Part shown: positions 4,188-45,702 of the stretch, piece after piece
How positions within the stretch are numbered: the first letter of the stretch is position 1
Layout of the letters: the number at the start of each line of letters is the position of its first letter
Notes under the pieces: generated by a model
Seen by the model: the letters and a program-made list of their open reading frames with translations, nothing else
The model's database searches: none
Told to the model about the DNA's origin: nothing
Assembly: GCA_038205065.1 (NCBI GenBank)
Contig: JBBRCG010000004.1
Coordinates: forward strand, 793-64,792
Direction: 5' to 3'
Origin: Candidatus Saccharimonadales bacterium
GTDB lineage: Bacteria; Patescibacteriota; Saccharimonadia; Saccharimonadales; Saccharimonadaceae
Length of the DNA stretch: 64,000 nt
Program-made: the position numbers and the translations under genes

Positions 4188-4991
4188 ATGGATACCAGTT
4201 ATTGGCAACAGCAGAAATCGTCCGCGCCATTATTTCCCGATGTCGAATGGAGCAAACCGGAGCAAAAGAGTCGCGCCGGGCGCCTCGCTGTTATCGGTGG
4301 CAACAAACTTGGCTTCGCAGGGGTCGCAGAGAGTTATTCTGGCGCATACGGCAGCGGCATCGGAAACGTCCGCGTCCTCTTACCAGATGCATTGAAAAAA
4401 CAAATTCCCGTCACCTGGACAGATGTCGCACTTGCACCCAGCACGATCAGCGGGGGATTTTCGAAGGATGCGACACCTCATATCCTCGCGATCGCCGACT
4501 GGGCCACGATGACGCTACTCATCGGTGACGCTGGGCGAAATAGCGAGACAGCGATCGCGTATGAATCCCTCATTCGAAATCATATCGGACCGATGACCCT
4601 CACTCGTGACGCGATCGATCTCGTCAAAAACTCTGCCGAAACCCTCGTGAATCGGCCAGAAACCCTTCTCGTTCTCTCTTTCGCGCAACTCCAGAAACTC
4701 TTTCAATCGGTTTATTATCCAAAAGTTCTGACCTTTAGCATGCAACTCCTCCAGCTCGTCGAAGCGGTACACAAATTCACGATCACGTATCCCATCACGC
4801 TCGCCGTCCTCCACAAAGATATCCTCGTCGTCGCGCACGGCGGGAAGGTGACCTCAACCCCGTGGGAAAGTCCGATGGCCATCTGGCGCGGCACCACCGC
4901 CACTCGTGCGGCTGTCTACTGGGCGTGGAATCCGACCTTGCCCTTCGAGGCGATTACGACGAGCCTGCTTGTCGATAACACTAAAGCTTAG
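4188..4991 (+). CDS. Carbohydrate-kinase/NnrD (ADP-dependent NAD(P)HX dehydratase)-like, divergent
   Basis: KSRAGRLAVIGG...SGIGNVRVLLP resembles the YjeF C-terminal/NnrD start; catalytic motifs are degenerate. Confidence 0.6.
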   Translation: MDTSYWQQQKSSAPLFPDVEWSKPEQKSRAGRLAVIGGNKLGFAGVAESYSGAYGSGIGNVRVLLPDALKKQIPVTWTDVALAPSTISGGFSKDATPHILAIADWATMTLLIGDAGRNSETAIAYESLIRNHIGPMTLTRDAIDLVKNSAETLVNRPETLLVLSFAQLQKLFQSVYYPKVLTFSMQLLQLVEAVHKFTITYPITLAVLHKDILVVAHGGKVTSTPWESPMAIWRGTTATRAAVYWAWNPTLPFEAITTSLLVDNTKA

Positions 4992-5222: not shown

Positions 5223-5327
5223 CGAGAACCATCATCCCCGCTTCGGCATCAGCCGAGGCGGGGAATGTTCTTTCTGGATGTCTAGTATAATTATTAGTAC
5301 GATATGACTCTAACAAAGGAGGAGCAA

Positions 5328-5630
5328 ATGAGCGAAGTACCTCATTTTACAGATACAGAGCCGCCAAACTCCGAAAGTGAAGACGTCGCCATGACTCCGG
5401 AAGAGCGAGCTGCGATTCTCGATTCGATAGAACGGGCTGCCGAAGTTCTTGGGCAAATTATGCGAATGCAAGAAAACTTAGCTAAATACCCAGACAGTAA
5501 AGCCCTTAACGATGTCTACGAACGTATGATGCGTGAGATTCGAAGAGCGCACGTATTTGTCGCTAACGAAATAGCAGGAAATCCTGAGTTACCTTATCCC
5601 CCTAAGGAGGGAGGTTTTAGTCTTTCGTGA
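5328..5630 (+). CDS. Hypothetical helical protein (ORFan)
   Basis: TATAAT at ~5286, AAAGGAGGAG SD before ATG 5328. Confidence 0.55.
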   Translation: MSEVPHFTDTEPPNSESEDVAMTPEERAAILDSIERAAEVLGQIMRMQENLAKYPDSKALNDVYERMMREIRRAHVFVANEIAGNPELPYPPKEGGFSLS

Positions 5631-5642
5631 ATTCAGAGGTAT

Positions 5643-5730
5643 TGGTGGGCGAGGAGGGACTTGAACCCTCACTCACATAATGTGAACAAGATTTTGAGTC
5701 TAGCGCGTCTACCGATTCCGCCACTCGCCC
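5643..5730 (-). tRNA. tRNA-Leu(CAA)
   Basis: GGGCGAGTGGCGGAATCGGTAGACGCGCTAGACT-CAA-AATCTTG...long variable arm...GGGTTCAAGTCCCTCCTCGCCCACCA; encoded CCA. Confidence 0.97.
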
Positions 5731-5826: not shown

Positions 5827-7008
5827 ATGCAACCGACAGATGACAATCGCAACAAACCAATCATTCCGCAGCGAAACGTTTCGCTTTCTAATGGTATGCG
5901 CGGTAATCGGCAAGATGAAGCGGCAAATGTCGTTCGTGGCCAACTAGATAACATCTACCAGGCCGACCCGAACGCGACCGTGCCCGTTGCCTCCATCCAG
6001 GCCTTCACTCAACCCATACAAGATGATGGCCCAAATCCCTACGAGCGCACTCACAACGAAGAACAGCACTCGATCAACCAAGATGCCTGGTCCCGCTACC
6101 ACAGCGCCTGGCAGAGTTATTATCAGCAATATTACGAGCGCTATTACATCGGTCAGGTTCACGAGGCGAAAAAGACCCTCGAAGCACGCGCCGGTAGCGC
6201 CACCGAATCATCAGCCATGAGTGAAGATGAAGCACTCTACGACCTCCGTTCTCAGCTTCTGGGCAAGGTCCGCAAGAGCGCCATTCGCGTCCGCAAAAGC
6301 AATCATTTTTGGCCCATCATGTCCGCCCTTATTGTCATGAGTATATTCCTGTTCCTCCAGTACAATCGCACAATGTTTGCCTTTGCCGAGGCGTACATCG
6401 TCCCTGGCGACTCGAAGGCCGCCAATCTCATCGTTGACCCCGGCGATAACAGCACCGTCACAAAAGATGACCGCCTGATCATCCCGCGCATTACCGTCGA
6501 TGTACCGATCATCTGGGACGCCGTCGCTTCGAGTCAGGACTCACTCAACGCCGCAATGAACAAAGGCGTGGCATGGTTCAATATCGCTCAAGCCCACAGC
6601 CGACCGGGGGAGAAGGGGAATTTCGCCCTATCGGGTCACTCATCAAACGACTTCTTCGACAGCGGTAACTATAAATTTATCTTCGCGCCCCTTGAGAAAC
6701 TGCAAGTCGGCGACCCGATCTATGTCAATTACCAGCAAAAACGCTACACCTACCGGGTCTCGAGCACGGAAGTCGTCAAGCCGACCGATGTTGCTGCGCT
6801 CTCAACCGATGGTTCAAAACCAGTCCTCACACTTATCACCTGCACGCCGCTCGGCACCGCGACAAACCGCCTCCTAGTCTTTGCCGATCAAGTCGATCCA
6901 GATCCAGTGACGGCTGCGGCGGCGGCCGTAGCTCCGAGCACGACGACAACCAAAATGCCGTCAAACTCGCCATCGTTCTGGGAACGCATCTTTGGCGGCG
7001 GCAACTAA
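5827..7008 (+). CDS. Sortase family protein with long N-terminal cytoplasmic extension
   Basis: One TM segment, SGHSS, F..L..L..GD.I.V and TLITC...RL sortase motifs; ATG at 5827. Confidence 0.85.
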   Translation: MQPTDDNRNKPIIPQRNVSLSNGMRGNRQDEAANVVRGQLDNIYQADPNATVPVASIQAFTQPIQDDGPNPYERTHNEEQHSINQDAWSRYHSAWQSYYQQYYERYYIGQVHEAKKTLEARAGSATESSAMSEDEALYDLRSQLLGKVRKSAIRVRKSNHFWPIMSALIVMSIFLFLQYNRTMFAFAEAYIVPGDSKAANLIVDPGDNSTVTKDDRLIIPRITVDVPIIWDAVASSQDSLNAAMNKGVAWFNIAQAHSRPGEKGNFALSGHSSNDFFDSGNYKFIFAPLEKLQVGDPIYVNYQQKRYTYRVSSTEVVKPTDVAALSTDGSKPVLTLITCTPLGTATNRLLVFADQVDPDPVTAAAAAVAPSTTTTKMPSNSPSFWERIFGGGN

Positions 7009-31181: not shown

Positions 31182-31191
31182 GGGATTTTTT
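31166..31191. terminator. Bidirectional intrinsic terminator
   Basis: AAAAAATCCCC-ACTA-GGGGATTTTTT. Confidence 0.8.
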
Positions 31192-31255
31192 GATTTTTCT
31201 GGTTAGTGTCTCGCCACCGTTCGCGGGTGCGACGGGTGGCGAGACGAGGCAAAGT

Positions 31256-31450
31256 TCAGAGCACGCGGCGACCGCTGCTCGGCCCCTTGGACCAGCGCGA
31301 ATCGTTCGCATCCGCTCTTATGATGGGACCGCCGCCAGGGCCAACTTCACCGGGCGGTACTGTTCCGGGATGACGAAATTCCGGCTGCGTGCCGGCTGAA
31401 ACTGAGGAGGCTTCGGTGCCCCTGTCGTCCGGACGGAATTCAAATGTCAT
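31256..31450 (-). CDS. Small Gly/Pro-rich hypothetical peptide (64 aa)
   Basis: TTCACG-17-CATAAT promoter, GAGGA SD, 11-bp hairpin 31208-31245 downstream. Confidence 0.4.
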   Translation of the reverse strand: MTFEFRPDDRGTEASSVSAGTQPEFRHPGTVPPGEVGPGGGPIIRADANDSRWSKGPSSGRRVL

Positions 31451-31581
31451 ATCGGTTCCTCTCGTTCATTGCCCGCCACGGTGCGGGTAACTACCGCCAT
31501 TATGCCACGAAAATCCGAACGTGAAAAGACAAAACCCTCTCAATCCCGAAGGAAGAAGAGGGTTAGTCGTTGTTTGTGAGG

Positions 31582-31968
31582 TCAGGGCAGCATACTGTTC
31601 TGCCAGGCCTCGCGGGCCTTCTGCAGATGGGGCCGGTCGGGGACCATCGCCCATTTGGCGGCTTCTTCCACGATCCATATCCGCTTGCGCCAGATCACTA
31701 TTACGAGAGCGCCTACCCCGATGGTGAGAGCTACGAGCAACAGATGCGCCTGCAGCCAGGCGACCAATCTTATGCCGTAACCGACCAGCACCAGCGTACT
31801 CACCGGTAGGGCGAGCCAGGACAGACTCCCGCGACCTTTAGTCGGCGGGTAGTGAGGCTCGAACCTCAGACGGGTATTAACCCATTTGAAGAGCGAGAAA
31901 TGACTCTTTGACCGTACGAACACTATCACCGCAAGGAACGGCACCAAAACCATACCGATAGTTTCCAT
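31582..31968 (-). CDS. Hypothetical membrane protein (ORFan)
   Basis: GAAGGA SD; three hydrophobic segments; hairpin downstream at ~31526-31567. Confidence 0.55.
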   Translation of the reverse strand: METIGMVLVPFLAVIVFVRSKSHFSLFKWVNTRLRFEPHYPPTKGRGSLSWLALPVSTLVLVGYGIRLVAWLQAHLLLVALTIGVGALVIVIWRKRIWIVEEAAKWAMVPDRPHLQKAREAWQNSMLP

Positions 31969-32100
31969 CAGCCCGTCCTTCCGGGGTCGTGGGTTAGTAA
32001 GGAACAACAACTCATTTGTTATAACACAATATCTCAGAAATTAAAAACACCCGGTTGCGTGCGATGAGAAGGCGGACCTCCTCATCGCACGCAACCGAGC

Positions 32101-32325
32101 TTACTCCAAAGAGGTTTGGGTCTCGGGCTCCTTCGAGCCCAGCTCTTCCTCGTACTGACGCGGGTCGGGCGCTGCGGCCCAGGGAACGACCGGCCAGACC
32201 ATGAACGCGAGGCCAGCCAGAGCTAGAATCAGCATCCATGTTCCGTCGTGGGTGGCAAAGCCAATCGCGGCCGCCACCATGAGCAAAGCGAGCCCGACAG
32301 GCATTCGCCAATACCTCTTATTCAT
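32101..32325 (-). CDS. Small two-TM hypothetical protein (ORFan)
   Basis: AAGGAAAGGA SD; two hydrophobic helices and an acidic tail. Confidence 0.55.
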   Translation of the reverse strand: MNKRYWRMPVGLALLMVAAAIGFATHDGTWMLILALAGLAFMVWPVVPWAAAPDPRQYEEELGSKEPETQTSLE

Positions 32326-32412
32326 GTTCCCATCCTTTCCTTGGGGGCCTGGAACATCCTCGGCATTATAGCACATTTATCACATTTTTACAATGTACGC
32401 TATACTACACAC

Positions 32413-32967
32413 ATGAAGCTTGTCGTTGCGCTGGGAAATCCAGGACCAGAGTACAAGACCACCCGCCACAATGTCGGATGGCTGCTTGTCGACCGATTTG
32501 CAACTGAGCATAATCTGAAGTTTGCCGCTAAGTCGAAGTTCCATGGTGAGATTGCCGAGCTAAGTGAGGCGGGGGAGAAGGTCATTTTTCTGAAACCGAC
32601 AACGTTCTACAATCTCGCCGGTGAGTCCGCGCGCGCCGTTAGTGATTTTTATAAGATCGAGCCGACCGATATCTTGATCGTCCACGATGACCTTGCGCTC
32701 CCGCTCGGCACACTACGCACCCGAATCGGCGGTAGCGACGCTGGAAATAACGGTATCAAATCTATCACTCAGCATCTCGGCGAGGGAACGGCTCGACTTC
32801 GCGTCGGCACTTGGACCGAACACCGCGAAACGATCGACGATGCTGATTTCGTCCTCTCGGCGCTGAATACCGACGAACACGAAGCAATCCTCAGCGTCTC
32901 GTCAAAAGCCAATGAAATTATCAATTCATTTATTGCGGGTACGTTCGAGACGACGACGCATCGATAA
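32413..32967 (+). CDS. pth: Peptidyl-tRNA hydrolase
   Basis: LGNPG.EY..TRHNVG, KPTTFYNLAGE, IVHDDL, GNNGIKSI. Confidence 0.96.
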   Translation: MKLVVALGNPGPEYKTTRHNVGWLLVDRFATEHNLKFAAKSKFHGEIAELSEAGEKVIFLKPTTFYNLAGESARAVSDFYKIEPTDILIVHDDLALPLGTLRTRIGGSDAGNNGIKSITQHLGEGTARLRVGTWTEHRETIDDADFVLSALNTDEHEAILSVSSKANEIINSFIAGTFETTTHR

Positions 32968-32974
32968 TGCCTTT

Positions 32975-33421
32975 GTTCTCTTTGCTAAAGAACCAGACGC
33001 CCTCCTTTTAATGTAAAAGGAGGCGAAAACATTGGGGATGGCTTCACCTCTCTGGGTCTCTCCTCCGAAAACATCTTGCGTATCTGCGCGCGGAGCAAAG
33101 CTCGTGCTCGATAGGCAGGATTTTTCATCGTCAATTCTCGGGTGGTTGCAGATATCCCCAAACCCCAGATTATATTTAGCGGCCTCGGCCGCTCATAATA
33201 GCGACTCCGTCGCACAGCTCAAGTGGGGTCCGGGGTATCTGCAGACCCCGAAGGAGTAGAGGTTCAGGCATCCTGGTATTCCGAGCACGAGCTTTGCTCC
33301 GCGCGCAGGAAGCCAAGATGAATGAAGCGACAGTCCCTCGAGGGGCGAAGCCACCCCGGCGGTTTCGCTCACTTTGCCGTCCAAAGTGAGAATCTTTGCT
33401 TCTTTTGATTTGAAAAGAAGG
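32975..33421. mobile_element. Palindrome-rich non-coding element (MITE/PATE-like or structured RNA)
   Basis: Perfect 27-bp inverted repeat 33084-33110/33282-33308 inside a ~340-nt hairpin; both ends recur at 42789-42869. Confidence 0.55.
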
Positions 33422-33426
33422 GCGGC

Positions 33427-34173
33427 TTAAACTCCCAATAACCTCAACAAAATCCCGACAAACACAATTCCGCCCACCAGCACCGCCGCCTGCAAGGTAG
33501 CGACTTTTCGTGGCTGCTCATGAATGCTCGGAATGATATCGCTTGCCGCAATATAGATGAAAAATCCACTCGTGAGCGCCAGCAACTCCGCCTGGGGAAG
33601 GTGAAGCGTATCTTGACTCAGGTAGATAATCGCGGCGGCGAGGACAGTTCCGAGTGCCGTGAGGGCATTTGCAACGATGACTTTTCGGCTGCGCCATCCA
33701 CGAGAGAGAAGCATGCCAAACGTCCCGATCTCTTTAGGGATCTCGTGGGCACTCACCGCAAGCACTGTCACGAAGCCAGACACGGGATTGACGAGGAAGG
33801 CCGCGCCAATCGCCACGCCATCGATAAAGTTATGGATGAGATCACCGGTCATGATGAGGCGATTTTGATGCTCATCTCTCGCCGCGTGCTCATGCTCGTG
33901 ATGGTGATGGAACCAACTCGCCGTCCGTTCCAGAACGAAAAAGAGCGTAAATCCCGCCAGTGTCCATCCTAGAACGGAATGCGTATCGCCGATAGATATC
34001 GCCCCTGGAAGGAGATCGAGGAATGCCGCCGCAAGTAGCGCGCCGGCTCCGAAGGGGAGTGCGAGCATAATGGCTCGCTCACGATGTCGCCCGTCGCGGA
34101 ATAGCGTCATCCCGCCGAAAAGCGAGACCGCGCTACCGATGAGAATCGCCAGAATCATCAAGAAAAATGTCAT
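33427..34173 (-). CDS. ZIP family metal transporter
   Basis: FGAGALLAAAFLDLLP, HHHHEHEH loop, GDLIHNFIDG, AHEIPKEIG. Confidence 0.93.
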   Translation of the reverse strand: MTFFLMILAILIGSAVSLFGGMTLFRDGRHRERAIMLALPFGAGALLAAAFLDLLPGAISIGDTHSVLGWTLAGFTLFFVLERTASWFHHHHEHEHAARDEHQNRLIMTGDLIHNFIDGVAIGAAFLVNPVSGFVTVLAVSAHEIPKEIGTFGMLLSRGWRSRKVIVANALTALGTVLAAAIIYLSQDTLHLPQAELLALTSGFFIYIAASDIIPSIHEQPRKVATLQAAVLVGGIVFVGILLRLLGV

Positions 34174-34299
34174 CGATTTATTGTAGCATGGGAGATCCAT
34201 TTACTTTTTTTACACAATATGCCATAGTTAGCACATATTCCGGAGCAACGCCTACCCGCTAAGCTCCGGGATCGGAGCTTAGCAGAATCGAGAAAAACT

Positions 34300-35441: not shown

Positions 35442-36419
35442 TTATCCTGTCCCGCTCGGCGGGACTTTTACATTCCATTTCGGAGGCAGGAACACCGTAT
35501 CTGGTGCCAAAGCCGGTTTGAAATGCGTCTTGATACGGGTACGATTCGACGCTAGTTCCGGTACGCGAACGCGGCAATATTTGTCTGTCTCGCAAAAGAG
35601 ATTTTGCGCGTCAATCGCCTGAATTCTACGTCCCCAGAGGCCACCAAATTCGAGCCCCAACCTCTTGAATTCCACGTCTTGCCGCCCAACCATCCAGAGC
35701 ACTACTTCCGCGGGCGTATAGTCACCTAAGTCAGCGAATAATTTATTTATACCTCGAATCGCTCCTGGTCCCGGCACGGTGAAATCATTTTCTGAAAAAT
35801 TGATCAGGTCACTATAATTCACATCAATTGCCGTCTGGTAGGCCATGAAATTTCCATAGAGCGGAAAGCTTCGATATATCCAATACACCGCCTCGAGTGA
35901 GGGAGCCGCGAGAATCTCCGCTGCCGCGTCGTGGGTCAGGAACATATCGGTAAATAACTCCACATGGTTGAGGTGTTTCAGCCCGCGCCCATAGGCATTG
36001 GTCGCACAGAGGATAAATGCACCCGTATAGAGGGTCTGGCCGTCATGTTTCATCTCCGTCAGTGCTCGCTCGAAACTTCCATCGGCGAGATTCTGAAGCG
36101 TCGGCGCATGACCGAGGCGACGACGAAGCTCCTCCCACGTTTCGATACGGCTAAAGGTACGAAACGCCGTGATCTGAAAAATCGCATCGGCTGGCGTGCG
36201 TTCTTCGTGGCCGTAGCAGACCTCGCGCACCATATATTGGCTGACGCGATCGAGGATGCGAAAGACATTGCAAAACTTATACTCCTGCAAGATCGGGTCA
36301 TCCGACCACGGGCCACTTTCACCCGCGTATCGCTTGAGAAACACTCCGTGGCGCTTCGCCGCGAACTCCCAATAGAGATCATAGACTCCCTCGCGCGGCA
36401 CCGGTTCACGTTTGTTCAT
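35442..36419 (-). CDS. 5-hmdU DNA kinase helical domain / aGPT-pyrophosphorylase clade 1-like (DNA base hypermodification family)
   Basis: GPWSDDPILQEYKFCNVFRILDRVSQY, G.FMAYQ..ID, GPGAIRGI and DAQNLFCETDKY motifs. Confidence 0.75.
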   Translation of the reverse strand: MNKREPVPREGVYDLYWEFAAKRHGVFLKRYAGESGPWSDDPILQEYKFCNVFRILDRVSQYMVREVCYGHEERTPADAIFQITAFRTFSRIETWEELRRRLGHAPTLQNLADGSFERALTEMKHDGQTLYTGAFILCATNAYGRGLKHLNHVELFTDMFLTHDAAAEILAAPSLEAVYWIYRSFPLYGNFMAYQTAIDVNYSDLINFSENDFTVPGPGAIRGINKLFADLGDYTPAEVVLWMVGRQDVEFKRLGLEFGGLWGRRIQAIDAQNLFCETDKYCRVRVPELASNRTRIKTHFKPALAPDTVFLPPKWNVKVPPSGTG

Positions 36420-41688: not shown

Positions 41689-42741
41689 ATGAGTGAACCT
41701 GTAGCAAAAGACACGGCCGCTGAATTGAAGTCAGCAGTACAGGACATTTTAAAGACTATCGAGCAGGAGCGCGAACGAGAAATCATCACGCGCCGTTTTG
41801 GGCTCTTTGATCGCAAAGAAACACTCGAGCAAATTGGCGAACTACTTGGCATCACCCGCGAGCGTGTCCGACAGCTCGAAAAAGCCATTCTCATCCGTCT
41901 CAAAATCGCCGCCGAAGAGGGTCGCATCCCTGTGGTTGGCGACGTCGAAAAGCTTATTATCCGCGACCTCTCCGAAAATGGCCGAGTCGCTCGAGTCCAA
42001 GACATGGCGCTCCGACTCACTGAAAAAACCGAAAGTACCGTCAAGGCGCACCTCGCGTTTGTCGGTGAAATTTCCTCAAAACTCGTAACCATCTCTGAGA
42101 ACGACAACTACTTCCAGGGTATCGGTATCTCTGAGTACGGAGACGAGCGAAAGGTAAAGAACCGTGTCGATGAGATCGTCAAAGCGATCAAGAAGCACGC
42201 CGAACCCCTCAGTATCGAGACACTTTACGACCAACTCGACGGCTATGAAACACCCGAACAGGTCCGCGCCCTCGCAACCCTCAGCAAACTTCTCGCTGAG
42301 CTTAAGGGTATTTGGGGCCTCACCAAGTGGCCAACCGTCAACCCAAAGAACATCCGTGACAAGATCTACGTCATCCTCGCCGACAATGGCAAACCGATGC
42401 ACTTCAGCAATATCGCTGGCAAAATCAAAGAGAGCGATTTCAAGCGTAAGGACGTCACTACTCAGGCAATCCACAACGAACTGATCAAAGACAAGCGCTT
42501 CGTCCTCATCGGTCGCGGCATCTACGCCCTCGATAGCTGGGGCTACAGCAAGGGAACTGTCAGCGACATCATCACTGAAGTCCTCAAAAAAGCCGGCGAA
42601 CCGCTCCACCGCGACGAGATCGTCAAGCGCGTCCTCAAAAGCCGCCAGGTGAAAGAGACGACTATTCTCTTGAACCTCCAGAGCAAATCCGACTTCAAGC
42701 GCGTCGCCAAGGCGACCTACAGCCTCGCAGAAAAAATCTAG
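41689..42741 (+). CDS. Sigma-70 region 4 HTH plus C-terminal HARE-HTH (RpoE/delta-like) protein
   Basis: RRFGL...ETLEQIGELLGITRERVRQLE; C-terminal PMHFSNIA..I...TTQAIHNELIKD.RFVLIGRGIYAL. Confidence 0.85.
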   Translation: MSEPVAKDTAAELKSAVQDILKTIEQEREREIITRRFGLFDRKETLEQIGELLGITRERVRQLEKAILIRLKIAAEEGRIPVVGDVEKLIIRDLSENGRVARVQDMALRLTEKTESTVKAHLAFVGEISSKLVTISENDNYFQGIGISEYGDERKVKNRVDEIVKAIKKHAEPLSIETLYDQLDGYETPEQVRALATLSKLLAELKGIWGLTKWPTVNPKNIRDKIYVILADNGKPMHFSNIAGKIKESDFKRKDVTTQAIHNELIKDKRFVLIGRGIYALDSWGYSKGTVSDIITEVLKKAGEPLHRDEIVKRVLKSRQVKETTILLNLQSKSDFKRVAKATYSLAEKI

Positions 42742-42788
42742 TCCGATATGACTAGTAGTAGAGCAGCCGGTTCACCGGCTGTTTTCGT

Positions 42789-42869
42789 GTTCTTTTTGCC
42801 AAAGAACCGAAAGGCCTCGCTTCGTATGGCAAAGTGAGGATCTTTGCTACTTTTGATTTGAAAAGAAGG
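42789..42869. repeat. Miniature copy of the 32975-33421 element (three short hairpins)
   Basis: 42830-42869 matches 33382-33421 at 38/40 nt; 42789-42807 matches 32975-32993 at 17/19 nt. Confidence 0.75.
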
Positions 42870-42924
42870 AATTACTGCTTACCCTTGCATTTTACCCCTG
42901 TTTGTGATACAATCGACCTCAGTT

Positions 42925-45702
42925 ATGGAATTCATCTCGATGGTCATCGGTTTTTTGCTTCAATGGTACGTCTGGGCGCCCATCGTTCTTATCCTCGCGT
43001 ACCTAACCTGGCGCAACAATCAGCAGGTGACAGTGGTCCGCAACACCGAGAGTGTCCTCCTGATGCTCGAGATCCCGAAAGCTAACGACAAGTCCGAGCT
43101 CGCCGCCGAGCAGCTCTTCGCAAGCCTCCACGGTATTCTGCGCGACGCCAAAGAGCTTAAGGCGAATGGGGGATACCAGGAACATCTCAGCTTTGAGTTC
43201 GCCTCTGTGGGCGGACGTATTCGCTTCTACGTCTGGACCCCAAAATCTCTCCAGAATTTCGTCGAAGGACAGATTTACTCTCAATATCCGACGGTCCAGA
43301 TTCACGAAGCCGAAGAGGACTATGTCAGCCACGAACGCCAGCATAGTGTTGTTTACACCTCTGAGGAGGTCTTAACGACGACCGAATTCCTCCCGATCAA
43401 GACATTCCAGAGCTTCGAGGTGGACCCGCTCGCCGGAATCACCGGTACACTCGCCAAACTCGAGGACACCAAAGATGAGATCTGGATCCAAATCCTCGTC
43501 CGCCCGATCGCTGATGATTGGCACAAACAGTCCGAGAAGTGGATCGCCCGTATCAGGAGCGGTAAATCTGGCGGCTCATTCTTTGACGCCAAGTGGCTAG
43601 GGATGCTATTTGAAGCGCTCTGGAAAGCTCCCGAGGAAGGGGAGAAGGCGAAAGCACCCGAAATCTCAGACCGCGACAAGACGCGCTTAGCCGAGGCAGA
43701 GAAAAAGGCAAACAAGCTCGGCTACCAAGTCAAAATCCGCCTCGCCTACCTCGGCGAGAGCCAAACGACCGCCAAACTCAATATGCAGGCAATCGTGGGC
43801 ACGTTCAAACAGTTCAACTCGACAAACCTCAACGGGTTCAAGATGGCGAGTGAGAGTTTCCGTAAAGAAGATCTCGGCAAATATAAGAGTCGCATCTTTG
43901 CCGATAGGGGATACATCCTCAATATCGAGGAAGTGGCTTCCGTATTCCACCTACCGCACACAAATGTCGAAACCCCGAATATCGTCTGGGCATCGAATAA
44001 AACCGCCGAACCACCCGCGAAACTGCCGGTGATTACCGGAGATCCAGCCGTCGACGAGAACATTTCTGCGTTCGGGCTCACGAACTTCCGCGGTATATTC
44101 CACCAATTCGGCATGCTGCGCTACGACCGCTCGCGCCACCTCTATATCATTGGTCAGACTGGCGCCGGAAAATCGGGCACGCTCGAGCTCCTCGCCCTCT
44201 CAGACATCTACCACGGCCAAGGCTATGCCATTATCGACCCACACGGCGACTTCGCCATCAATAACATGAAATTTATCCCTGGTAGTCGCATGCAGGACGT
44301 GGTCTATTTCAACCCAGCCGACACTGAGTTCCCCCTAGGGTTCAACCCGCTCGAGGTCACTGATCCATCACATAAGACGAACATTAGCTCGGAAGTTATC
44401 GGCGTATTGAAACGCATGTTCGGCGAATCATGGGGCCCGCGACTCGAATATATCTTGCGCTATACCATCCTCGCACTGCTCGATCGCCCCGAGACCACGA
44501 TGCTCGATATCACCCGTATGCTCACCGACAAACGTTTCCGCAAAGAGACGCTCAGCTACTGTCGGGACACCGTCGTACTCCAGTTCTGGAATATCGAATT
44601 TGATAGCTGGACAGAGAAGTTCCAGTCTGAGGCTATCGCTCCAGTGCTCAATAAGGTCGGTGCCTTTACGGCAAACCCAGTCATCCGAAACATCATCGGC
44701 CAACCAAAGTCTACCTTCAATATCCGTACGATGATGGATGAAGGCAAGATCCTGATCGTCAATCTCAGTAAGGGTCTTATCGGCGAGGACAACGCCGGTA
44801 TTCTCGGTGCGTTCCTAGTCACAAAGATTCAGCTAGCCGCCATGAGCCGTAGCGATATCCCCGATATTGAGGATCGCCGTCCGTTCTACCTCTACGTAGA
44901 CGAGTTCCAAAACTTCGCGACCGACTCCTTTGCGACCATCCTCTCAGAGGCGCGCAAGTACGGCCTGAACTTAACCGTTGCCAACCAGTACATCTCACAG
45001 ATGTCTGACACAGTTCGTAATGCCGTATTTGGTAACGTCGGTACGATGATGAGCTTCCGCGCATCTGCTGATGACGCCGCGACGCTTGGCAAGCAATTCG
45101 AGCCCCAGTTTGAGCCAAATGACCTATTGCAGATGCATAATCGCAACTTCATCATCAACATGGTGATCAACGGTGAGAAAGCCCCCGCCTTCAGCGCTAG
45201 CACGCTCAATCTCCCGACCGCCACCTCCGACAACACCCATGAGATCATCCAGAACACCCGCGCCAATTATGGCCGCCCGCGGTCTGAAATCGAACGCGAG
45301 ATCTCAGACAGGATATTGCCACCACAAGCCCTCCAAACAAAAGGGAAGGGCAACCCTGGCTATTCAGAGAATCAGAAACAATTCCTCGCCGAAGAGGGGA
45401 TCGCCTTTGAGGCGCCCGCAAGTAAGCAACCCACCGGCGAGAACGGTGCCCCGAGCCCCACAGAGCCCGCGACAACCCGCGAGCAACCAGAGAGGGAAGC
45501 GAACACCCCCGCCCTACCAGTCGATGATGGACAGCCAAAGAAGCGCAAACGCAGCCGTAGCCGCGGCAGGAGGCCATCGGAAAGCAGCAGTAGCCAAGAA
45601 GTGCATTCAGAAGGCCAAGACCGACCCGCCGCTACTGCCTATGCGCCTGCCACACCAGCCCCAAGACGAGTTGAAGACCCAACACTTCTTAAACTTCACT
45701 AG
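42925..45702 (+). CDS. VirD4/TraD-like (DUF87/TrwB) coupling ATPase, CPR-type
   Basis: RHLYIIGQTGAGKS, IIDPHGD, YVDEFQNF, SEARKY.L.L..ANQY; N-terminal TM; low-complexity C-terminus. Confidence 0.88.
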   Translation: MEFISMVIGFLLQWYVWAPIVLILAYLTWRNNQQVTVVRNTESVLLMLEIPKANDKSELAAEQLFASLHGILRDAKELKANGGYQEHLSFEFASVGGRIRFYVWTPKSLQNFVEGQIYSQYPTVQIHEAEEDYVSHERQHSVVYTSEEVLTTTEFLPIKTFQSFEVDPLAGITGTLAKLEDTKDEIWIQILVRPIADDWHKQSEKWIARIRSGKSGGSFFDAKWLGMLFEALWKAPEEGEKAKAPEISDRDKTRLAEAEKKANKLGYQVKIRLAYLGESQTTAKLNMQAIVGTFKQFNSTNLNGFKMASESFRKEDLGKYKSRIFADRGYILNIEEVASVFHLPHTNVETPNIVWASNKTAEPPAKLPVITGDPAVDENISAFGLTNFRGIFHQFGMLRYDRSRHLYIIGQTGAGKSGTLELLALSDIYHGQGYAIIDPHGDFAINNMKFIPGSRMQDVVYFNPADTEFPLGFNPLEVTDPSHKTNISSEVIGVLKRMFGESWGPRLEYILRYTILALLDRPETTMLDITRMLTDKRFRKETLSYCRDTVVLQFWNIEFDSWTEKFQSEAIAPVLNKVGAFTANPVIRNIIGQPKSTFNIRTMMDEGKILIVNLSKGLIGEDNAGILGAFLVTKIQLAAMSRSDIPDIEDRRPFYLYVDEFQNFATDSFATILSEARKYGLNLTVANQYISQMSDTVRNAVFGNVGTMMSFRASADDAATLGKQFEPQFEPNDLLQMHNRNFIINMVINGEKAPAFSASTLNLPTATSDNTHEIIQNTRANYGRPRSEIEREISDRILPPQALQTKGKGNPGYSENQKQFLAEEGIAFEAPASKQPTGENGAPSPTEPATTREQPEREANTPALPVDDGQPKKRKRSRSRGRRPSESSSSQEVHSEGQDRPAATAYAPATPAPRRVEDPTLLKLH

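Follow-up and report, generated by a model that had tools for sequence, protein, structure and literature searches.

Repetitive extragenic palindromic (REP) sequences and bacterial interspersed mosaic elements (BIMEs) are GC-rich palindromes of 20-40 nt with a GTAG or CGTC head, present in tens to hundreds of copies and accompanied by a RAYT gene. Saccharibacteria are ultra-small episymbionts with genomes of approximately 1 Mb, and to our knowledge almost no non-coding RNAs or mobile elements have been described from them. In the present study, a 64 kb stretch of the genome of a Candidatus Saccharimonadales bacterium (contig JBBRCG010000004.1, here called the window) was investigated around a long palindrome in the gap of approximately 450 bp between the convergent genes for peptidyl-tRNA hydrolase (pth) and a ZIP-family metal transporter, at window positions 32968-33426. 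This region holds two tail-to-tail, diverged copies of one structured non-coding unit of approximately 200 nt. It is filed here as a structured non-coding intergenic repeat of an undescribed type, and no description of the family was found in the literature on non-coding RNAs and repeats of Saccharibacteria, Patescibacteria or the Candidate Phyla Radiation.

A first-pass annotation, made from the sequence alone, had described a single hairpin element of approximately 340 nt. All of the sequence features that it listed are present. There is a perfect 27 bp inverted repeat (33084-33110 / 33282-33308), for which 0 matches are expected by chance, and which widens to 39 nt at 90 % complementarity (33072-33110 / 33282-33320). 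The CATCTTG/CAAGATG and TGGCTTC/GAAGCCA pairings are likewise found, as are the inner TGCAGATA..CCCC stem (33147-33165 / 33225-33243) and two capping hairpins, GCGGCCTCGGCCGC at 33179-33192 and GCGACTCCGTCGC at 33201-33213. The long hairpin spans 33024-33367. For the fold of 32968-33426, the predicted energy is -230.7 kcal/mol on the plus strand (z -11.2) and -233.7 kcal/mol on the minus strand (z -13.6), and none of 100 shuffled sequences folded as stably. The slightly better fold of the minus strand gives only weak information on strandedness; the true signal is not the same for both halves.

The core is not, however, one hairpin of 340 nt. It is made up of two convergent homologous units, each of which folds on itself: unit A (33001-33192, plus strand) and unit B (33390-33201, minus strand), both consisting of a 5′ hairpin (P0), a core and a 3′ GC hairpin. 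Most related loci (given L numbers here) have the homologue of the left arm once, self-folding into a hairpin of approximately 145 nt, and the left arm of the window and the reverse complement of its right arm align with these loci as copies of one unit. Outside the apex, units A and B are approximately 50 % identical, and in the pairs of the window and of L023 only 58-66 % of columns can pair from arm to arm, versus 93-96 % intact pairs within the units. The perfect 27 bp inverted repeat exists because both units carry the same 27-mer in opposite orientation, not because the arms must pair, and it is due to this shared 27-mer and the shared architecture that a strand spanning both units is predicted to fold as a long hairpin. 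Thermodynamically, the long hairpin is a side effect of having two homologues in inverted orientation; selection has kept two separate hairpins.

Support for the separate hairpins comes from covariation. The consensus structure has 37 pairs, with 93.6 % of cells paired, versus 29-51 % when the 3′ partners are slid by 1-3 columns. Sixteen pairs are changed on both sides and there are 83 compensatory cells, values that were reached by 0 out of 500 shuffles. Within the pairs, G.U outnumbers A.C by 83 to 7, or by 21 to 7 without three near-constant G.U pairs, therefore the structure has been selected on one strand per unit, plus for A and minus for B. A covariance model, R1, was built from the unit alignment, including the window units, and the window was scanned with filters off, giving exactly two matches, 33026-33168 (+) and 33222-33366 (-). 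The R1 score is partly circular, as the window sequences are in the model; the uniqueness of the two matches and their strand asymmetry are not.

From left to right, the region begins with an outer AT-rich hairpin, H1, GTTCTCTTTGCTAAAGAAC (32975-32993, +), followed by the spacer CAGACGCC. H1, an optional boundary module of the cassette, recurs at the orthologous sites of L034 and L011, and L020 lacks it. Next comes the P0 of unit A, CCTCCTTTTAATGTAAAAGGAGG (33001-33023, +), a 10 bp perfect inverted repeat to which the first-pass annotation gave no name; the linker CGAAAAC follows it. The core hairpin of unit A (33026-33168, +) has a basal stem P1, TTGGGGAT/ATCCCCAA, internal loops, the apex and an ACCCC tail, and scores 131 bits with R1, versus 11 bits on the opposite strand. 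Its apex is the 27-mer CTGCGCGCGGAGCAAAGCTCGTGCTCG (33084-33110, +). The 3′ GC hairpin of unit A, GCGGCCTCGGCCGC (33179-33192, +), lies at the centre of the pair, next to that of unit B (33201-33213, -; GCGACGGAGTCGC on the minus strand). The core hairpin of unit B (33222-33366, -) has the same architecture, scoring 140.5 bits on the minus strand and 19 bits on the plus strand, with its 27-mer apex at 33282-33308 (-). It is followed by the P0 of unit B, which is the hairpin H2 (33368-33390, -; CTCACTTTGGACGGCAAAGTGAG on the minus strand), and by the outer AT-rich hairpin H3, CTTCTTTTGATTTGAAAAGAAG (33399-33420, -), the boundary module on the unit B side.

This layout of P0, linker, core hairpin, usually an ACCCC tail, and 3′ GC hairpins is common to all 21 units examined. 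P0 is a 5′ hairpin of 9-10 bp, the outer pairs of which covary (CCTCC..GGAGG, CTCAC..GTGAG, CCACC..GGTGG, CTTCT..AGAAG), and the linker reads GMAAAAC, or G/C-A/G-AAAC over the units examined. The core is an irregular hairpin of approximately 145 nt with covarying stems and a near-invariant 27 nt apex motif, and one or two small GC hairpins lie within 50 nt 3′ of the unit. The 27-mer CTGCGCGCGGAGCAAAGCTCGTGCTCG is identical in 21 of the 23 distinct aligned units. Like the 27-mer, two internal-loop sequences, 5′ GGCUUC and 3′ UGCAGAU, are near invariant.

A second type of apex, CUGCGGGCAACACU..GUUGGUUGC.GUCCUCG, was identified in the A unit of L034 (3997-4146), the B unit of L011 (2895-3045) and the A unit of L069 (1305-1454), where it replaces the 27-mer inside otherwise orthologous units that retain the same P1 and the same CUGCG/CUCG base. 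The pairs of the window, L034 and L011 are orthologous, sharing the gene order der-pth-[pair]-ZIP with 70-89 % nucleotide identity in the flanks. At this site the apex types (A/B) are I/I in the window, II/I in L034 and I/II in L011; copies have therefore exchanged everything that lies between GGCUUC and UGCAGAU. The boundaries of the exchange coincide with these conserved loop sequences. One weak model match, L075 760-843 (-; 24.8 bits), has P1, GGCUUC and UGCAGAU without any interior, and is inside a topoisomerase I gene; it could be a chance match or a minimal scaffold.

To survey the family as a whole, one genome of each species was scanned for an exact 20-mer of the stem, and metagenome contigs for an 18-mer. 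The 20-mer identified 14 loci in five Saccharibacteria/Patescibacteria metagenome-assembled genomes (MAGs), the other four out of 18 genome matches being chance matches elsewhere, and one exact match is in a contig of 971 kb. The 18-mer identified 13 true loci among 50 fetched; the remaining 37 are chance matches in unrelated sequence. The family was found here only in Saccharibacteria, with from one to at least eight copies per genome, the greatest number of loci (at least eight) being in MAG CAZOOQ01. The first-pass annotation had proposed a family of related elements, and such a family of non-coding elements with a conserved structured core does exist, in multiple copies in some genomes. 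Viral contig, phage and plasmid records contained nothing similar to it.

Three forms can be distinguished. Single units are found in L007/L019/L049 and L018, and convergent pairs in L023, L034, L011, L020, L022/L054/L017 and L069. In the long form, of approximately 500-560 nt, unit 1 is followed by three small hairpins and then by a second domain of approximately 180 nt, in which there are separate covarying helices and two invariant stretches, AGUCAUUCACGACAA and UUGUCGUGAC. The G.U to A.C ratio in the second domain is 17:3 on the strand of unit 1, therefore the long form looks like one RNA. The possibility that the second domain is a diverged unit on the opposite strand was rejected, as the ratio on that strand is 6:9.

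Individual long-form and related loci have features of their own. In L008 (approximately 4210-4300), an insertion of some 90 nt right after CTGCAGAT, with the same sequence as the DNA immediately upstream of the unit, splits the 3′ strand of P1 and makes a long direct repeat around the core. In L004 (54-3375), a long-form copy has a PIF1-like helicase gene on one side and a KwaB-like (Kiwa defence) gene on the other, a site that may be a variable or defence region. In L009, approximately 660 nt more of non-coding sequence lies 3′ of the long form (5970-6635), with a strong 15 bp hairpin, GGGACTCGCACGA...TCGTGCGAGTCCC; this sequence has no Rfam match and no similarity to the other loci.

None of the known RNAs was matched when the core was compared with covariance models, including 6S, HEARO/omegaRNA, signal recognition particle (SRP) RNA, RNase P, tmRNA, ROOL and GOLLD. 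At the Rfam gathering threshold the window contains two tRNAs only, and at E values up to 10 the matches to 32900-33500 are noise (P5 at 14 bits and chrB-b at 12 bits). The 13 related loci searched gave no Rfam matches, the L009 element gave only noise at E values up to 10, and an ARAGORN scan for tmRNA and tRNA found nothing at the site. Possible resemblances to RNase P, tmRNA and SRP RNA, such as that of GGAGCAAAGCUCG to the RNase P motif GGAGGAAAGUCCGG, were rejected, as none of the models gave a score, the motifs misalign, and the element is both accessory and multi-copy. Protein coding, including a small toxin ORF (open reading frame) of a type I toxin-antitoxin system, was also rejected on the basis of many frame-breaking indels of 1-2 nt and no conserved start codon. 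In the alignments and ORF lists, which did not amount to a systematic small-ORF screen, none of the ORFs across the region keeps a conserved frame. A search for conserved non-coding sequence in the neighbourhood also gave nothing.

Evidence of transcription comes from a relative. The long-form copy in L009, from a widespread wastewater organism (SACCH1 contig JAIUPJ010000001.1, 971 kb), is listed in at least 18 RNA-labelled wastewater or biofilm runs, and its unit 1 part (about 5300-5730) was recovered in all eight of the RNA libraries examined. In three of these runs (X14, X19 and X22), little or nothing of the flanking genes is covered in the 3 kb stretch of L009. A scan for sigma-70-like promoters found none that faces into unit A or unit B, the single match (33222-33195, -) pointing antisense into unit A. 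Seven out of eight single or long copies are downstream of a co-oriented gene and, with no promoter of their own visible, read-through is therefore the simplest source of the transcripts. The short AT-rich border hairpins of L009 (5860-5925) are present in runs X15 and X20 at a contig depth of 54-102, versus 3-10 elsewhere, joined to many different flanks with similar hairpins, for example GTTCTACGAAAAAAGAAC and CTTCTTCGCAAAAAGAAG. Arrays of border-type hairpins seem to be common and abundant in the RNA of the wastewater community.

Comparisons between genomes show that the element is accessory, being gained and lost as a block. An empty site is present in L020, in which the stop codons of pth and the ZIP gene are only approximately 19 nt apart, with no hairpins. 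A second site lies between the genes for a sigma70 region 4/HARE-HTH protein and a type IV coupling protein (T4CP). It is filled with a pair in L069, the sigma70 region 4/HARE-HTH protein of which is 97 % identical to that of the window, and also in L023 and L020 (the latter 70 % identical). In nine genomes at 77-88 % identity the site holds no element, only a terminator and promoter or unrelated inserts; in all, nine out of 10 syntenic sites are without the element. Within MAG CAZOOQ01, L012 and L005 have different flanks, are identical across the left border shown, and are 97 % identical over approximately 540 nt, in a block bounded by the outer hairpin and by a hairpin close to the right end. 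In the window's own metagenome, only one pair and one remnant were identified at 80 % likeness or more.

This remnant, at 42789-42869, is what the first-pass annotation had described as a miniature made of the two ends. The ends do reappear there fused: H1, H2 and H3 are each found exactly twice in the 64 kb, where 0-0.03 are expected by chance, and the second copies have 17/19 identity for H1 and 38/40 for H2 and H3 together. Five AT-rich border-type hairpins were detected in the window, four of them at these two sites; the fifth (40787) is different in sequence. Transposition of a miniature is not supported, since the closest relatives, L069 and L023, hold a full pair at the orthologous site, as does the distant L020. 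Because of this, the 80 bp element is better described as the remnant of a second pair that has undergone internal deletion, both cores being missing. It consists of an outer hairpin (42789-42807), a single imperfect P0-type hairpin, CTCGCTTCG/CAAAGTGAG (42816-42838), and another outer hairpin (42847-42868). The right end of the L069 and L023 pairs (CAAAGTGAGAATCTTTGCTTCTTTTGATTTGAAAAGAAGG) is almost identical to H2-H3 of the window. A deletion scar at an occupied site is the parsimonious reading of this sequence comparison. The two P0 hairpins bracketing the palindrome may have recombined or slipped, which would remove both cores and leave one imperfect P0.

The remnant is bordered closely on both sides. 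Directly before it, downstream of the sigma70 region 4/HARE-HTH gene, is a terminator-like GC hairpin with a T-run (42763-42785, +), which is in the same place in L023, L069, L070 and others. Directly after it is a promoter-like TTGCAT-17 nt-TACAAT (42885-42913, +) before the T4CP gene (ATG at 42925), conserved in L023, L069 and L070.

The reading favoured here, with modest confidence, is that the two convergent units belong to an accessory family of structured RNAs of Saccharibacteria, the apex of which is bound by a sequence-specific partner. Each unit probably acts as an RNA on its own strand, as supported by the G.U bias and by the RNA libraries containing L009. It would be transcribed on that strand, probably by read-through from the upstream gene, and its stems would present the apical motif and the internal loops GGCUUC and UGCAGAU to the partner, which may be a protein or another RNA. 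Such presentation is suggested because positions that are able to covary stay invariant. Spread and loss, the least certain part of this proposal, may occur via recombination at the hairpin-rich borders or via an enzyme encoded elsewhere.

Several points weigh against a partner-binding RNA. No partner protein or function was identified, no promoter or clear terminator delimits the transcripts, and none of the RNA runs lists the sequence of the window's own pair. The RNA evidence consists of assembled contigs that carry no strand information and could include DNA carry-over. A second copy, of the pair type, gave one RNA contig of 154 nt only; its organism is not contained in the wastewater RNA libraries. 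Read-through cannot explain unit B of L023 or the L020 unit beside the T4CP gene, both of which face away from the upstream genes. G.T pairs are tolerated in single-stranded DNA too, so that strand bias alone cannot tell RNA from single-stranded DNA. In addition, the invariance of the 27-mer is inflated by the design of the search, because exact 18-20-mers of that motif served as queries against the public collections, and three units found without this bias, through their partners or through synteny, carry the different apex.

A stronger version of the RNA reading is more tentative. It is possible that these units are a new, Saccharibacteria-specific class of functional RNA, of approximately 200 nt or, with the second domain, approximately 550 nt, in which a conserved scaffold of P0, P1 and the GGCUUC/UGCAGAU loops presents an interchangeable apex to a dedicated protein, or which is a catalytic RNA, the whole propagating through these small genomes as a protein-free, self-contained cassette.

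The rival explanations, in order of likelihood, are an element that acts only as DNA, a 3′-end element of the neighbouring mRNAs, a single fold-back and a 6S-like RNA. Under the first of these, which is unlikely yet better placed than the other three, the element is non-autonomous and mobile, folding into hairpins as single-stranded DNA and moved in trans by an HUH/Y1 enzyme, a RAYT or a relaxase, with the 27-mer as the binding or nicking site and transcription incidental. This would account for copy numbers of one to at least eight, for near-identical copies at different loci, and for filled and empty sites, including the patchy occupancy of the sigma70 region 4/HARE-HTH-T4CP site, where the lineages at 97 % and 70 % have the element and the nine at 77-88 % do not. 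No target-site duplication was seen at the borders of the L012/L005 block, nor at the window, L034, L023 and L069 sites, and none is expected for HUH enzymes; strand-specific G.T pairs fit single-stranded DNA, and in two lineages the element adjoins a T4CP gene. However, no transposase, integrase or relaxase family was identified among 19 flanking ORFs from 12 related loci or among eight window ORFs around the two sites. In none of the copies examined was there an adjoining tnpA(Y1), RAYT, TnpB or IscB gene, as an IS200/IS605-type or REP-type element had been envisaged to have, or any other transposase gene. Nor are the ends of those types: the flanking hairpins are symmetric inverted copies, on opposite strands, unlike the ends of IS200/IS605, their number varies between orthologous sites, and L020 has no outer hairpins beyond P0. 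Terminal inverted repeats are present in some copies, L012 having 43 nt at 95 % and L023 and L069 having inverted outer hairpins. The left flanks differ (CTTT, CTAG, TTGT, CCCA and TCTC), showing no fixed tetranucleotide. Inheritance of orthologous copies has been stable as they diverged to 70-85 % identity, covariation through a multi-helix structure of approximately 145 nt exceeds the needs of known single-stranded DNA recognition hairpins, and several RNA libraries contain more of the element than of its neighbours.

It is less probable still that the units are simply 3′-end elements of the neighbouring mRNAs, serving as a bidirectional terminator or as a barrier to 3′ exonucleases in the manner of REP/BIME, ERIC or Correia sequences, without a function of their own. 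Their position fits this. The pth gene (32413-32967, +; ORF list; Pfam PF01195, E 3e-52) ends 8 nt before the element and the ZIP-family gene (33427-34200, -; Pfam PF02535, E 3e-38) ends 6 nt from it, so that units A and B each begin 6-8 nt past the stop codon of a co-oriented gene, and most single or long copies are, as noted above, similarly downstream of one. The border hairpins and T-runs score as terminator-like, and RNA with small border hairpins is abundant in metatranscriptomes, at the depths of 54-102 given above. A terminator or stabilizer, on the other hand, needs no near-invariant 27 nt motif, conserved loops or interchangeable apex. Many copies are behind a separate terminator-like hairpin and T-run belonging to the upstream gene (L012, L023, L069 and L020), and most related genomes have no element at the same sites.

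That one fold-back of approximately 340 nt is the functional entity, as an RNA, a cruciform or a foldback MITE (miniature inverted-repeat transposable element) whose arms must pair, is very doubtful. The minimum-energy fold is indeed the long hairpin, at about -231 to -234 kcal/mol versus -63 and -80 kcal/mol for the 188 nt units alone, and convergent pairs are present in at least seven further fetched loci, about five of them distinct (L017, L022 and L054 are near-identical). Nevertheless, the arms are too diverged outside the apex to pair as the units do internally, the compensatory changes are within units, units also occur alone (L007 and L018) or joined to the unrelated second domain, and pairs with two apex types (L034, L011 and L069) break the pairing from arm to arm. 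Least credible of all is a divergent housekeeping RNA, likeliest a 6S-like RNA that binds RNA polymerase: a hairpin of approximately 145 nt with a persistently unpaired, pyrimidine-rich internal loop of approximately 10 nt on each side, recovered from RNA libraries, is in keeping with this, but the Rfam models of 6S, SRP, RNase P and tmRNA give no match even at E values up to 10, the element is absent from nine out of 10 related genomes at the one intergenic site sampled while reaching at least eight copies in one MAG, and the window's genome has lost one copy and not replaced it.

The sigma70 region 4/HARE-HTH gene (41689-42741) is followed by the T4CP gene (42925-45702; Pfam matches to DUF8128 and TrwB-like domains) in all 10 contigs fetched by homology, as well as in L020, with small intervening ORFs in five. 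The sigma70 region 4/HARE-HTH protein, which one source names "RNA polymerase delta subunit", is widely conserved in Saccharibacteria, all 8,000 scored candidates being at E values of 1e-20 or below; the best 120 are 77-97 % identical. The two genes are a conserved pair in Saccharibacteria.

On the other side of pth, the der-pth intergenic region (31182-32412) is approximately 1.2 kb in the window versus approximately 370 nt in L034, a syntenic relative. The additional sequence, some 800 nt, contains no ORF recognizable by Pfam, a 142 aa ORF (31582-32010, -) being without a match; it also holds a 46 nt inverted repeat around 32052-32097. A gene 1.2 kb past the ZIP gene (35442-36419, -) has a strong match to the helical domain of 5-hydroxymethyldeoxyuridine (5-hmdU) DNA kinase (PF18723, E 2.6e-94). 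The 5-hmdU DNA kinase is known from phage pathways of thymidine hypermodification.

This analysis supplies a searchable family, defined by a covariance model and a 27 nt signature, which is structured, strand-specific, apparently transcribed and accessory, and which can reach at least eight copies in a minimal genome with no enzyme in evidence. As a functional RNA, it would amount to a new RNA-protein or ribozyme system of the Candidate Phyla Radiation; as a mobile element, it would amount to an undescribed route of moving DNA in Saccharibacteria. For the annotation of genomes, the lesson is that a spectacular long hairpin may be merely two inverted homologous genes.

Compared with known systems, the element shares most with the ERIC/IRU, Neisseria Correia, pneumococcal BOX/RUP and Rickettsia RPE repeats and MITEs, being non-coding, intergenic and a few hundred base pairs in length, with inverted symmetry and the potential to form a long hairpin. 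Like ERIC, Correia and BOX-type repeats, it varies in copy number, has filled and empty sites and is apparently transcribed together with adjacent genes; its modular build recalls BOX. It differs from these repeats and from MITEs in having no visible target-site duplication or cognate transposase and a low copy number in most genomes. Furthermore, each arm is a covarying multi-helix structure of approximately 145 nt with a near-invariant apex; such conservation of the arms is typical of functional RNA rather than of transposase-binding terminal repeats. With REP/BIME and their RAYTs, and with the palindrome-associated transposable elements (PATEs) of IS200/IS605, it has in common short, imperfect border palindromes in alternating orientation, a non-autonomous nature and no target duplication. 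In contrast to REP/BIME, the border hairpins are AT-rich, have GTTC or CTTC heads rather than GTAG or CGTC, and are dispensable, as in L020. In contrast to IS200/IS605 PATEs, the ends are symmetric rather than having the asymmetry of left and right ends on one strand, and no Y1 or RAYT gene is beside the copies.

Among the structured RNAs, HEARO/omegaRNA of IscB, GOLLD and ROOL are likewise a few hundred nucleotides in length, with strong covariation, a patchy distribution, several copies per genome and evidence of transcription. The element differs from these in that their Rfam models do not match it, IscB, TnpB and prophage genes do not adjoin it, and no guide-like variable end was identified. 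It resembles 6S RNA in being hairpin-shaped and 150-200 nt in length, with an open internal loop, and in being recoverable from total RNA, and differs in being accessory and multi-copy, with a sequence-invariant apex and no Rfam match to 6S. Defining features of MITEs (target duplication and a partner transposase) are lacking, as are those of REP/BIME, IS200/IS605 PATEs and all Rfam families. The general marks of a functional RNA are present: compensatory changes, strand-specific G.U pairs, and transcription, the last from the relative L009 and in contigs without strand information. The element behaves most like the transcribed intergenic palindromic repeats and MITEs, on the one hand, and like the multi-copy structured RNAs that travel with mobile DNA, on the other.

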